From: Candidatus Woesearchaeota archaeon
Lineage (GTDB): Archaea > Nanobdellota > Nanobdellia > Woesearchaeales > JABIAG01
Assembly: GCA_018653365.1 (NCBI GenBank)
Contig: JABIAG010000001.1
Coordinates: forward strand, 448,001 to 512,000
Reading direction: 5' to 3'
Length of the DNA stretch: 64,000 bases
Part shown: positions 1 to 3,658 of the stretch, in pieces
How positions within the stretch are numbered: the first letter of the stretch is position 1
Layout: the number at the start of each line of letters is the position of its first letter
Notes under the pieces: generated by a model
Seen by the model: the letters and a program-made list of their open reading frames with translations, nothing else
Database searches by the model: none
Told to the model about the DNA's origin: nothing
Translations under genes and position numbers: made by a program

Positions 1-1242
1 CTTACTAAACTCGACATCCGAAGTAACAGCATTATTAATAATCTTAATTGGTTGACCATTTTCTAAAGGAGCAAATAATGCTAAATTAGCTAATTTTTTG
101 TAATCAATCAGGTGAGAATCAGATTGTAAATGTAATATGATTCCTGAATCTTTATTTTTTTCAATATCATGAAAAGTCGAGGGAAGAATTTTGGCTTTGT
201 CAATATCTTTTATTATGTAAAGTTTGAAATCTCCATCAGGAACGACCGGAAGCTGAGTAGTGGTTATCTCCAACTTATTTAATGATTCAAGAGCGGTCTT
301 AAGATAATCTTTACCCTCATTATTAGTAACATAAAGCGTTGGAATTCGTTTTACCTCAGGTAAACTAACATAAGCAACATTATCAACAGGAAAATCATCA
401 TTAACTTCTAGTTCAAACATGTTAGACCCTGGGGTTAAATCAAAATAAATCGACTCAACACCGTTAGCTCGAAGAACAAGTTCTTTAGATTGCGTTGCAG
501 ACTTAACGTTAAACTTGACATTTTGAGAATTATAATTCTTAATTTTTAGTCGGGCTTGATCAGTAACTTCTAGATCAATAATTCCTACATTGTTAACTGG
601 TTTGTTAAATGATTTAAAGACAACTCGAATATTCTTAGCATTTAACTGACGCTTAGCAATTACGGGTTCAGGAATAGAGGCAAAATCAGAAAGAATATAA
701 ACCGTTCCACCCTGCATTAAACTAGATGCTTGTAACATTGCATCCTCAATATTTGAAAGCGTATCTGAGGGTTGAATGTTAGCCAAAATATCTGCTGCCT
801 TTTCAGAACTGCCCTTCTCCACTAAGGTAAAGGGAATGTTCTCAGCAAGAATAATAGAAACTTTATCTTTATCTTTGATTAAACTTTGCGCTTCCTTAAT
901 CGCTGCACTAAATCGAGTTGAAGAATCATATTTAGCCTGCATGCTGGCACTAGAATCTAAAATTAAAGTAATGTGTTCCTCGCTCCTTTCTTGAGAGATG
1001 TTAAGTAACGGAGTTGCAGCAGCAAAAGCTAAAAGTAATATTGCTAATAATTGTAATATAAATAACATGTTAGCCATGAGTTTCTTAAAGAAGGCTGAAC
1101 GCTTTTTAATGGCTTTATCTTTAATAAAAAACATCAATGAAGAAAACACTTTCTTTTTAGGCTTACGAGAAAACAAATAAAATAAAACTAATGGAATAAG
1201 AAGAGCTAATGCGCTAAGTGCAAGGGGATTTCGGAAAGGCAT
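1..1242 (-). CDS. BatA/vWA domain protein (3' end runs off the window)
   Basis: Not in ORF track. Manual translation from ATG at 1242: MPFRNPLALSALALLIPLVLFYLFSRKPKKKVFSSLMFF (BatA-type N-terminus), later LILDSSASM (MIDAS DxSxS). Confidence 0.8.
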   Translation of the reverse strand, partial: MPFRNPLALSALALLIPLVLFYLFSRKPKKKVFSSLMFFIKDKAIKKRSAFFKKLMANMLFILQLLAILLLAFAAATPLLNISQERSEEHITLILDSSASMQAKYDSSTRFSAAIKEAQSLIKDKDKVSIILAENIPFTLVEKGSSEKAADILANIQPSDTLSNIEDAMLQASSLMQGGTVYILSDFASIPEPVIAKRQLNAKNIRVVFKSFNKPVNNVGIIDLEVTDQARLKIKNYNSQNVKFNVKSATQSKELVLRANGVESIYFDLTPGSNMFELEVNDDFPVDNVAYVSLPEVKRIPTLYVTNNEGKDYLKTALESLNKLEITTTQLPVVPDGDFKLYIIKDIDKAKILPSTFHDIEKNKDSGIILHLQSDSHLIDYKKLANLALFAPLENGQPIKIINNAVTSDVEFSK

Positions 1243-1317: not shown

Positions 1318-1824
1318 ATGATAGTGACGTTAAGCGATAGAGCTAGTTTAGAAGTTCCTGAAGAGTTCTTAGAGTACTTATCTTCACACAAAAAACCAGC
1401 TTTTGTAAAGGGCTTTTTTACTCGACTAAAACGAGTTGTAAGAGAACGAACAAAAGCCGAAGTTGGTTTAGATATTCTTGGGAATGAAACAAGAGGAATA
1501 ACTTTCTTCGCTCAACAAATTGGATTATACTTTCGAAGAGAGGATCAGTTACTTTTTGGTATAACCGAACCTAGTGAATATGCTCCCATAGTTCTTGGTA
1601 AAAAGGGACCTTTAAGAGGGGGAGTAAAACCGTTGAACGAATTTGATTTAGATTTCAAAGTGAATGGTGCTAGTTGTGAAGTTGTTTTAAGTTCAGATGT
1701 TTTATTAAAAAGCAGAATAACACAATTTAATAGAAGGTATGGTGCAGGAGTTGCAAATTATGCCCCTCATGCAACTCCATCAGAATTACACTTACTAGAA
1801 ACTTTTTTTGGATATGAAAGATAA
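1318..1824 (+). CDS. hypothetical protein
   Basis: 168-aa ORF with TTTATAAA box upstream; no recognisable motif. Confidence 0.6.
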   Translation: MIVTLSDRASLEVPEEFLEYLSSHKKPAFVKGFFTRLKRVVRERTKAEVGLDILGNETRGITFFAQQIGLYFRREDQLLFGITEPSEYAPIVLGKKGPLRGGVKPLNEFDLDFKVNGASCEVVLSSDVLLKSRITQFNRRYGAGVANYAPHATPSELHLLETFFGYER

Positions 1825-2164
1825 AGGTTACAAAAGTATATTGGTTAAAATCATGAGTCGAAGAGTTAATGTAGGGGACAGAAATGTTGAGGTTATTATC
1901 GGTAAAGGAATGCAAGCTCATCTAACTGAGGTTGTTTTCCCTAAAATGCGATTTACTCAGTATGGTGATTTTCTTAAAGTTTTGGAGAGGGAGGTAAGAA
2001 AATTATTTCAATCTGAACAATGTGAGGTATCTGATCCAAAAATGTGGGTGTTAAGATACGCAGGATATGAAGAAGAAAATGTGAAACCAACTGAAAATCA
2101 AAGAACTCTTCCTATAGAAAGAGGGATTTTTGGTGACCAAATGGTCTTCTATACAAACTTTTAA
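1814..2164 (+). CDS. hypothetical protein
   Basis: ORF overlapping previous stop; ATG at 1814 preferred to TTG 1808. Confidence 0.55.
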   Translation: MKDKGYKSILVKIMSRRVNVGDRNVEVIIGKGMQAHLTEVVFPKMRFTQYGDFLKVLEREVRKLFQSEQCEVSDPKMWVLRYAGYEEENVKPTENQRTLPIERGIFGDQMVFYTNF

Positions 2165-2208
2165 AAGTTCTACAAAACATTTAAATAGGTTCTGAATAAT
2201 AAACTAGT

Positions 2209-2364
2209 ATGAATCTCTTTAAAAAAAAATGTTATGTCTGTAGTAAATGTGGATATAAATCTGTACAAGCAATCAAGACCTGTCCCACGTGTGGAACGAG
2301 TCTAGAAGAATATTGTTGTAAGTGCGGATGTGCAAAAGGGAATTGTACTTGTAAAAAATGCTAA
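2209..2364 (+). CDS. 51-aa cysteine-rich metallothionein-like / Zn-binding peptide
   Basis: Not in ORF track. MNLFKKKCYVCSKCGYKSVQAIKTCPTCGTSLEEYCCKCGCAKGNCTCKKC*, 12 Cys; TTTAAATA box at about 2180. Confidence 0.75.
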   Translation: MNLFKKKCYVCSKCGYKSVQAIKTCPTCGTSLEEYCCKCGCAKGNCTCKKC

Positions 2365-2401
2365 TTATGAACCTAATTTCAGAATGGCACGGAGTGGAGT
2401 G

Positions 2402-3316
2402 ATGTTAGACACAATAATTATTGGAGGCGGACCCGCAGCACTAGCCGCAGCAGTATATGCCGCACGACAAAAAATAAAATTTATTGTTATTTCTAAAGAT
2501 GTTGGAGGACAGGTAGCCTGGAGTAGTGATGTTGAAAATTATCTTGGATTTAGCTCAATTGTTGGAATAAAATTAGCTGGAGAATTTAAAAAACATGTAG
2601 AAACCAATGGCGTTAAAGTTGAAATGGCTGAAGTTGTTGGAATTGAAAAAAAAGGAAAACAATTCATTGTTAAAACACCAACAAAAAATTATGAAACTAA
2701 AACAGTTTTGATCACCTCAGGAAAAAAACCAAGAAAATTAGGTGTGAAGGGCGAAGAAGATTACGAAAAAAGAGGAGTGGCATATTGTGCAACCTGTGAC
2801 GGACCAGTATTTAGCGGAATGAATGTTGCAGTTATTGGCGGAGGAAATTCGGCTTTAGACGCAGCATTGTTACTAGATAAGTATGCCAAAAAAATATATG
2901 TTGTTAATTTGAATAATCAATTATCTGGAGAACGAATGTTGCTTAGCAAAGTTAAGAAAAGCAAAAAAGTTCACATTTACGACAATGCAATCACTAAAGA
3001 AATAAAGGGAGATGGAAAAAAGGTAACCTCTCTAAGTTTTGAACAAAACGGAAAAGAGTTCGAAATTAAGGTTGGGGGAGTGTTTGTAGAAATTGGAAGT
3101 GTACCCTCAAATTCTTTTGATAAACTAACAAAGAAAAACCAGTGGGGAGAAATAACTATTCATACTAAAAATGGAATTTCAAATCAAACCTCAGTAACTG
3201 GAATGTTTGCTGCCGGAGATGTGAGTAGTGTTCCTGAGAAACAAGTGATAGTAGCAGCGGGAGAGGGAGTAAAAGCAATATTGGGAATATTTAAATACTT
3301 GAATGGTTTGAAATAA
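2402..3316 (+). CDS. trxB: thioredoxin reductase-like FAD/NAD(P) disulfide oxidoreductase
   Basis: GGGPAA FAD motif, CATCDG redox motif, GGGNSA NAD(P) motif, FAAGD; GGAGTG RBS before ATG 2402. Confidence 0.9.
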   Translation: MLDTIIIGGGPAALAAAVYAARQKIKFIVISKDVGGQVAWSSDVENYLGFSSIVGIKLAGEFKKHVETNGVKVEMAEVVGIEKKGKQFIVKTPTKNYETKTVLITSGKKPRKLGVKGEEDYEKRGVAYCATCDGPVFSGMNVAVIGGGNSALDAALLLDKYAKKIYVVNLNNQLSGERMLLSKVKKSKKVHIYDNAITKEIKGDGKKVTSLSFEQNGKEFEIKVGGVFVEIGSVPSNSFDKLTKKNQWGEITIHTKNGISNQTSVTGMFAAGDVSSVPEKQVIVAAGEGVKAILGIFKYLNGLK

Positions 3317-3331
3317 AAAAGGTGATAAAAC

Positions 3332-3658
3332 ATGGTTTCGCATGATGATAAAGTAATGGGAATGTTAGCACATCTATTAGGTATTTTTACTTGGTTTATA
3401 GGACCCTTGATTATACTCTTGGTTGCTAAAGACAAACACAAATTTGCATACAAAAATGCAGCACACGCAATAAACTTTCAGATAAGCGTAACAATCTACG
3501 CAATAATCTGCGCATTGTTGGTTCTGGTATTAATTGGGTTATTATTATTGCCAATACTTATGATATTTGCACTAGTAGTAGAAATCGTAGGAAGTGTGAA
3601 AGCATATGAAGGAGCAGTATACAAATACCCTCTAGAAATACCTTTTATTAAAGCATAG
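3332..3658 (+). CDS. DUF4870-like small membrane protein
   Basis: LAHL...GPLII...A.NFQIS...YKYP pattern; AGGTGA RBS. Confidence 0.8.
   Translation: MVSHDDKVMGMLAHLLGIFTWFIGPLIILLVAKDKHKFAYKNAAHAINFQISVTIYAIICALLVLVLIGLLLLPILMIFALVVEIVGSVKAYEGAVYKYPLEIPFIKA

Follow-up and report, generated by a model that had tools for sequence, protein, structure and literature searches.

The classes of thioredoxin reductase (TrxR)-like enzymes have been reviewed (PMC7278568), and such enzymes that are fed by ferredoxin, independently of pyridine nucleotides, are known to exist (FFTR; PMC12796991). Pairs of glutaredoxin-like (Grx) and TrxR genes occur in archaea and in Thermotoga. A small Cys4 zinc site is tied to the thioredoxin (Trx) system in Trx2 (TrxC), the zinc-binding double-CXXC domain of which has been proposed to be redox responsive and to release zinc on exposure to oxidants (PMC8945050). 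Among archaeal microproteins, those of the C(P)xCG zinc-finger type (HVO_2753/PF07754, Brz and DUF7129-type) are 50–90 aa long, have four Cys pairs with CPxCG-type knuckles and carry no enzymatic domain; one of them, Brz, regulates bop, and its own gene lies upstream of bop (PMC2253796). Metallothioneins (MTs, e.g. bacterial SmtA/BmtA) are small, Lys-rich proteins with CC, CxC and CxxC motifs and a high Cys content, and the review ‘Redox and Thiols in Archaea’ (PMC7278568) nowhere mentions metallothionein. The locus described here adds a new family and a new genomic association to the archaeal Cys-rich zinc-ribbon microproteins.

The locus lies in a window (the whole stretch of 64,000 nucleotides that was analysed, in the genome henceforth referred to as G000) in which the gene of a 51-aa microprotein (henceforth the ‘small gene’ and ‘small protein’) directly precedes that of a TrxR-like flavoprotein (henceforth ‘TrxR-A’). 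The features concerned are as follows (positions in the window):

2180..2187, plus strand: TATA-box-like octamer TTTAAATA, with an A-rich stretch 5' of the box and 21 nt to the ATG
2209..2364, plus strand: gene of the 51-aa Cys-rich microprotein, with ATG start and stop codon included
2391..2399, plus strand: Shine-Dalgarno-like run GGAGTGGAG, ahead of the TrxR-A start
2402..3316, plus strand: TrxR-A, 304-aa low-molecular-weight thioredoxin-reductase-like flavoprotein (Pfam Pyr_redox_2, 2e-36)
3332..3658, plus strand: DUF4870 membrane protein (Pfam PF09685, 4e-29), 15 nt 3' of TrxR-A

The original prediction of a 51-aa ORF with 12 Cys and nine Lys at 2209–2364 on the plus strand was borne out, as was its spacing of 37 nt to the reductase, counted from the end of the ORF to the conserved ATG at 2402. 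The Cys residues (positions 8, 11, 14, 25, 28, 36, 37, 39, 41, 46, 48 and 51) make up 23.5% (12/51) of the small protein and form CC, CxC and CxxC motifs. The claim that the gene has its own TATA box also stood, the octamer TTTAAATA being kept 21–22 nt before the ATG in G002 and G001, the other two species of the genus. Its position fits an archaeal promoter and, because it is only 21 nt from the ATG, the small-gene mRNA is probably leaderless; the run GGAGTGGAG before the reductase fits an operon-internal gene. The DUF4870 gene, which is kept in G002 and not in G001, is possibly the third gene of the unit. Cys-rich ORFs are rare in the 1.09-Mb genome G000, where five of 6,240 mechanical ORFs of 30–120 aa have at least 12 Cys, and several of these five are junk frames. 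A spurious ORF can be excluded for practical purposes in the case of the small gene, the proof being its conservation; between G000 and G002 it shows 13 synonymous and 12 non-synonymous codon differences. The gene had been described as unannotated, which is not so: gene callers do predict the ORF and its homologues, as hypothetical proteins. Directly upstream, two overlapping ORFs of 168 and 118 aa without a Pfam match occupy window positions 1318–2164 (plus strand), the shorter with a 119-aa counterpart at the same position in G002 (L002:1707-2066), and positions 1–1242 (minus strand) encode a divergent BatA/VWA-domain protein with an aerotolerance-regulator N-terminal domain, DUF7407 and DUF7408, a neighbour that is also present in G002.

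Orthologues of the small protein are found in both other species of the genus (G002, 76% identity; G001, 55% identity; lengths 51 and 50 aa). A word-indexed single-sequence search matched the small protein to itself only, and an exhaustive phmmer search yielded mostly repetitive multi-ribbon proteins and one true relative, the distant P0020. A profile search returned 37 clusters, which are named Woesearchaeota or Nanoarchaeota ‘hypothetical protein’ or are nameless and among which no Pfam domain was found. Altogether, the HMM search for conserved Cys spacing that had been suggested with the original prediction gives about 40 homologues, all with eight invariant Cys. In an alignment of 41 sequences these are C11, C14, C25, C28, C36, C39, C46 and C48, spaced as CxxC-x9/10-CxxC-x7-CxxC-x6-CxC, and Y9, R/K13, G15, Y16, R/K17, L32, E33, A42, G44 and N45 are near-invariant. 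The small gene is real and conserved, and its family of Woesearchaeota microproteins is undescribed; the lack of conservation that the original prediction had allowed for was found neither within the genus nor among the homologues. In size, in its four Cys pairs and CPxCG-type knuckles, in its archaeal hosts and in having no enzymatic domain the family resembles the archaeal zinc-finger microproteins, but it reaches the cut-off of none of their models, its last knuckle is CxC, and it has a signature of its own (YxCGRCGYR...LEE.C..C..A.GNC.C) as well as, in close relatives, TrxR-A as a neighbour.

A typical member of the family is 68–98 aa long, with eight Cys and a Lys/Arg-rich tail at its end, which in most members comprises 20–45 residues. 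In the genus of the window (three genomes) this tail is lost and Cys8, Cys37 and Cys51 are gained; Cys41 occurs in G000 only, and 11 Cys are common to the genus. The set of 12 Cys to which attention had been drawn therefore holds in part: eight are family-wide and three genus-specific, whereas Cys41 is absent even from the genus relatives. The eight invariant Cys fit two predicted Cys4 sites of zinc-ribbon/rubredoxin type. Since only the genus of the window shows the tail loss and the additional Cys, the metallothionein look arose late and locally, on top of a core with two sites (Cys4+Cys4). Distant subfamilies of 41–62 aa (L004:1346-1486, L032:1498-1665, and L067-L079 around position 1500) are not beside TrxR; they mostly have the same CxxC-x9/10-CxxC-x7-CxxC-x6-CxC spacing and end in CICN or CTGGSTKEP..KH, and one member, L068, scores over the cut-off of the Pfam heavy-metal-binding domain HMBD (25.0 vs 23.6 bits).

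Linkage to the reductase gene, the second check suggested at the outset, is tight. In 14/14 loci of close relatives with a readable gene context, the window included (G000, G001, G002, G106, G253, G193, G575, G450, the short contig L025 and five assembly loci), the small gene lies immediately upstream of TrxR-A on the same strand, and the linked TrxR-A orthologues are 55–76% identical. The gap between the two genes is 4–37 nt in most loci and about 370 nt in genus g105, with L029 at 245 nt. There is no gap in G001, where the small-gene stop and the reductase start overlap (ATGTTAG), an arrangement that indicates translational coupling. In a maximum-likelihood tree the 11 TrxR-A proteins linked to the small gene form one clade (support 87/86), the sister of which is a pair of TrxR-A genes without it. 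The unity of this clade and the consistent linkage show that the pair was inherited together, and by all appearances the small gene is co-transcribed with TrxR-A. Across the order, a TrxR-A match (E <= 1e-80) is found in 13 of 401 genomes; the small gene is present in six of the 13 and absent from seven, so that TrxR-A does not depend on the small protein. A search for fusions longer than 173 aa returned no fused forms with TrxR, Trx or Grx, which is weak evidence.

Over its full length TrxR-A aligns with archaeal TrxRs and with the AhpF C-terminal module, and it has the FAD and dinucleotide folds, a GGGPA motif and a redox-active CxxC (CATC). Because this CxxC disulfide is kept, TrxR-A can be expected to perform dithiol chemistry. 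It differs from AhpF and the low-Mr TrxRs in several respects. It scores 272 bits against the TIGR01292 equivalog cut-off of 343 bits, and the AhpF model (TIGR03140) gives 269 bits in an alignment that covers AhpF residues 214–515 only, the N-terminal double thioredoxin-fold domain of AhpF being absent. The NADPH motif HRRxxxR is also absent: VVNLNNQLSGE stands in its place, whereas the canonical TrxR of a related genome (L078) has HRRSEFRA, and in some orthologues of TrxR-A the Glu that belongs to NADH sites of the AhpF type is present. The nearest solved relative is the AhpF C-terminal module (PDB 1fl2/1hyu, 6e-59). Further PDB chains (6gna-6gnd and 5j60), which are listed as ‘Thioredoxin reductase’ and which we take to be FFTR and DDOR, match TrxR-A at 1e-25 to 1e-33. 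An AhpF/AhpC system was considered and rejected, as no peroxiredoxin was found in G000, where the sole PF00578 match is the thioredoxin.

The original prediction had proposed the small protein as a possible substrate of the reductase, arguing that no thioredoxin gene is nearby. The tight linkage does make a role as partner or substrate plausible, but the argument from a missing thioredoxin fails at the level of the genome. G000 has a thioredoxin gene (88 bits; C1:529248-529541) about 79 kb from the small gene, and 1.7 kb from it a second TrxR (TrxR-B; G000:C1:526720-527595; 291 aa, 35% identical to TrxR-A, with RSK at the dinucleotide site), 15–17 kb past the end of the window; TrxR-B and the adjacent Trx are probably the housekeeping pair. 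A Grx gene (G000:C1:235880-236050) is present as well, and the small protein as sole substrate for want of Trx was rejected on account of all three.

As in the known pairs of archaea and Thermotoga, Grx-like genes adjoin TrxR-A in relatives. Where TrxR-A is without the small gene, a Grx-like gene of 76–86 aa (CPYC, CPWC or CAEC) often fills the upstream slot, at 1–11 nt from TrxR-A in L090, L095 and L097 and at 47 nt in L094. In L057 the gene order is Grx, small gene, TrxR-A, Prx-like, Trx-like and DsbD. The slots around TrxR-A can be taken by Grx-like genes as well as by Cys-rich microproteins. A further arrangement is seen in family f129, where the operon consists of Grx (CPWC), a 53-aa protein with 10 Cys, TrxR-A, a 48–51-aa protein with nine Cys and a single-cluster ferredoxin:

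L103:1498-2967 (G344): f129 operon; also in L104, L108, L110, L117 and L118

Each of the two f129 microproteins has a CxxC...CxxC ribbon followed by a CC/CxC cluster; the nine-Cys protein (CxxC...CxxCGCCxxCCxCG) has an acidic N-terminus and is encoded downstream of TrxR-A. The tallies for f129, 7/11 and 9/11 genomes, include the unpublished genomes G208, G598 and G601, and the alignments and operon maps cover G344, G599, G600, G132, G264 and G054 only. Comparison by hhalign among the three Cys-rich families around TrxR-A gave probabilities of 50% and 18%, in each case over single knuckles only, which does not establish homology. The ferredoxin gene in this operon suggests that TrxR-A is possibly fed by ferredoxin. 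Elsewhere in G000, outside the window, a 67-aa ferredoxin-like ORF (G000:C1:571003-571206, minus strand) has a canonical second cluster motif (CIDCGACIETCP) and, in place of the first motif, C..KCTCGCC....KCC...CP, which resembles the tails of Cys-rich microproteins.

Other genes recur near TrxR-A in relatives. They encode rubrerythrin, a dual-specificity Cys-phosphatase, a ZIP transporter (scoring 108 bits in L098 and 34.5 bits in L094) and, at one locus, an ArsR-type regulator. A DUF7128-like zinc-finger protein of 52–60 aa also recurs beside the TrxR-A module:

L052:2553-3953: TrxR-A module with recurrent neighbours
L054:2508-3919: TrxR-A module with recurrent neighbours
L056:2532-3995: TrxR-A module with recurrent neighbours
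L098:3-1400: TrxR-A module with recurrent neighbours

The rubrerythrins of the order are recurrent weak matches of the small peptide. They carry an extra Cys-rich tail (e.g. CMCFEADCERCDDGC) after the C-terminal rubredoxin-like domain; to our knowledge such a tail has not been described. Examples are:

L024:1444-2040 (G000 contig 2): rubrerythrin with Cys-rich tail
L013:1346-1891: rubrerythrin with Cys-rich tail
L097:166-732: rubrerythrin with Cys-rich tail

Searches of Pfam, NCBIfam and PDB sequences with the small protein and its family gave nothing over threshold except the HMBD match of L068. The Pfam model DZR (PF12773) was matched by four of 41 members (best E 5e-4) and fell short of its threshold (12.8 vs 27.3 bits); DUF7129 (best E in the family 9e-4) did not reach its cut-off, and PF07754 (HVO_2753 type) matched one of 41 members at E 0.004. 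Rubredoxin PF00301 is not among the listed matches of any family member, no rubredoxin or ferredoxin model matches the family, and no metallothionein model is among the Pfam and NCBIfam matches at E <= 1. Scores in the protein atlas, which serve as a lead only, do not exceed 0.89. AlphaFold2 with the family alignment predicts (mean pLDDT 76.7) a beta-hairpin ribbon for the N-terminal half, with strands at 9–11 and 31–35 and two CxxC knuckles (C11-x2-C14 and C25-P-x-C28-G), and is weaker for the C-terminal part. The best structural matches are zinc ribbons (rmsd 1.0–2.5 A over 26–35 residues, Foldseek E about 0.4, VIA Z <=3.7), and the Foldseek and VIA-align matches are generic only: LapB, rubrerythrin, Nop10, ribosomal proteins and the heavy-metal-binding domain of CopA. 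The small protein was also considered as the equivalent of the ribosome-associated HVO_2753, a candidate that was rejected since G000 has its own HVO_2753-family gene elsewhere (64 bits).

We considered whether the small protein is a genuine metallothionein, as the original prediction had it, in which 11–12 thiolates would bind at least three Zn, Cd or Cu ions for storage or detoxification and the reductase would keep the apo-form reduced. The very high Cys content with CC, CxC and CxxC motifs and the 11 Cys kept throughout the genus speak for this, and so do the ZIP and ArsR/SmtB-type genes in related TrxR-A neighbourhoods and the distant subfamily member that exceeds the HMBD cut-off. However, the MT-like features are limited to one genus: the family fixes eight Cys as zinc-ribbon pairs, the extras that would form a cluster occur in three genomes only, and the CC/CxC tail that had been read as typical of MTs is a genus-specific addition, absent from the family core. 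Metallothioneins have few aromatic residues or His, whereas Y9 and Y16 are near-invariant here and His and Phe are kept in most members; no MT family is matched at E <= 1, and near the locus in G000 there is no ZIP or metal-regulator gene. The family core, with its two predicted Cys4 sites, also corresponds to the outcome that the original prediction had named as speaking against its own claim. We therefore consider a genuine metallothionein improbable, and the label is not to be applied on present evidence. An iron-binding one-electron carrier deserves more attention, even if we regard it as unlikely on balance. Such a protein, with a rubredoxin-like Fe or an Fe-S cluster, would pass electrons between the TrxR-A flavin and a partner, either as a donor in the style of ferredoxin and FFTR or, like rubredoxin after NROR, as an acceptor that hands them on to rubrerythrin or superoxide reductase. 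Its CxxCG(Y)...CPxCG knuckles are the same as those of rubredoxin and of the rubredoxin-like domain of rubrerythrin (PF00301, PF21349), with short spacing within them; this domain and LapB are structural matches of the small protein, and the order's rubrerythrins match the peptide recurrently, if weakly. The CxxCxxC...CP string in the genus of the window, the lack of the HRRxxxR signature of canonical TrxR in TrxR-A, the ferredoxin gene of the f129 operons, and the presence in G000 of rubrerythrin and a desulfoferrodoxin-type gene, with PF00301 rubredoxin not found there, all fit a carrier. On the other hand, plain zinc ribbons (RadA, ribosomal proteins) commonly have these knuckles too, the inter-knuckle spacing of rubredoxin is about 29 residues compared with 9–10 in the small-protein family, a second Cys4 site is predicted, and neither a rubredoxin nor a ferredoxin model matches above noise. 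TrxR-A itself is nearer to AhpF than to the 6gna-6gnd and 5j60 chains, some of its orthologues have the Glu of NADH sites, and within the order rubrerythrin has a far wider distribution than the small-protein family.

The basic tail of most members raises a further question, namely whether the small protein is a Brz-like zinc-ribbon regulator that binds nucleic acid, controls the operon of TrxR-A at the level of transcription or translation, and possibly uses its Zn-thiolates as a sensor of oxidants, instead of taking part in electron transfer. Besides the Lys/Arg-rich tail, the weak similarity to ribosomal and RNA-binding zinc ribbons and the place of the small gene, first in the unit and, like that of Brz, directly upstream of its putative target, would agree with such a role. 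However, the genus of the window lost the basic tail and keeps both gene and linkage, the gaps of 4–16 nt and the stop/start overlap suggest an output matched to that of the enzyme, the small gene is mid-operon in L057, and TrxR-A has three families of Cys-rich microproteins beside it, of which one is encoded downstream and has an acidic N-terminus; we consider a regulator quite unlikely. That TrxR-A is AhpF-like yet without the AhpF N-terminal domain, and that the gene pair is tight and co-inherited, could also be explained by a structural zinc-ribbon subunit or assembly factor without redox chemistry, which might for example dock in place of the missing domain. Seven of the 13 genomes of the order with TrxR-A orthologues have no small gene, and the lineage-specific extra Cys suggest that the thiols themselves matter, so that a purely structural role appears improbable.

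The explanation that we favour, tentatively and as a possibility that stops short of probable, is that the small protein serves TrxR-A as a metal-thiolate redox partner or client: its thiolates would be oxidised under stress, and the enzyme would reduce them again, either itself or via Grx. It rests on the conservation of the small protein (the 76% and 55% identical orthologues and about 40 homologues with eight invariant Cys), on the 14/14 linkage to a single TrxR-A clade (87/86), on the Grx-like gene that fills the same slot (L090, L094, L095, L097) and in L057 stands beside the small gene, and on the other Cys-rich microproteins that recur at TrxR-A in f129. It is further supported by the redox and metal genes (rubrerythrin, ZIP, ArsR, Cys-phosphatase) near TrxR-A in relatives, and by the fact that TrxR-A keeps its CxxC and that G000 has a separate TrxR-B next to Trx, probably for housekeeping. 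The small protein would fold around two Cys4 metal sites, most likely binding Zn, and the three or four extra Cys of the genus, in place of the Lys/Arg tail, may enlarge the thiolate cluster. Oxidants would attack the metal-thiolates, with formation of disulfides and release of metal; the CATC dithiol of TrxR-A, acting either itself or by way of the Grx-like protein found in the same slot in relatives, would then re-reduce the small protein and allow metal to rebind. The small protein would thereby take part in the oxidative-stress response, as a small redox buffer or switch based on thiols and zinc. Trx2 offers the nearest likeness, in that a small Cys4 zinc site is tied to the thioredoxin system; however, its Zn(CxxC)2 domain is 30–35 residues fused to thioredoxin, whereas the small protein stands alone, with two predicted sites and without a thioredoxin fold, and it is the reductase with which it is paired; no sequence homology is shown between them. 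Several observations argue against a redox partner: the long Lys/Arg tail of most members looks like one for nucleic-acid binding, fusions with TrxR, Trx or Grx were not found (weak evidence), and the distant subfamilies have the same Cys spacing without linkage to TrxR. In addition, the fold matches are generic ribbons at low significance (Foldseek E about 0.4, VIA Z <=3.7), the gene pairing is equally compatible with an electron carrier or a regulator, and the family is patchy, with the small gene in 6/13 TrxR-A genomes.

A more far-reaching form of the redox-partner proposal, which we offer as speculation and believe unlikely, is a hitherto undescribed thiol/metal redox relay of DPANN (Woesearchaeota-type) archaea. 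In such a relay an AhpF-like, possibly NADPH-independent TrxR-A would work with at least three unrelated Cys-rich microprotein families, all built of a CxxC ribbon and a CC/CxC tail, instead of or besides thioredoxin-fold proteins. The partner in the genus of the window would have turned into a cluster protein with 11–12 thiolates; no archaeal protein of metallothionein-like character would have been known before to come with a reductase of its own, and the operon would encode a thionein/thionin cycle.

The redox biology of DPANN archaea is almost wholly inferred from annotation, and their microproteins are as a rule passed over. The module described here, consisting of a reductase paralogue and a Cys-rich microprotein, has only two genes, and two small recombinant proteins would suffice for a direct test. 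Even if the microprotein were only a structural ribbon or a regulator, its family would still be new and well defined and would merit a name and a model. If it is a client or electron carrier, the known partners of TrxR would extend beyond thioredoxin-fold proteins, and this could explain the handling of oxidative stress and zinc in the reduced genomes of DPANN archaea.
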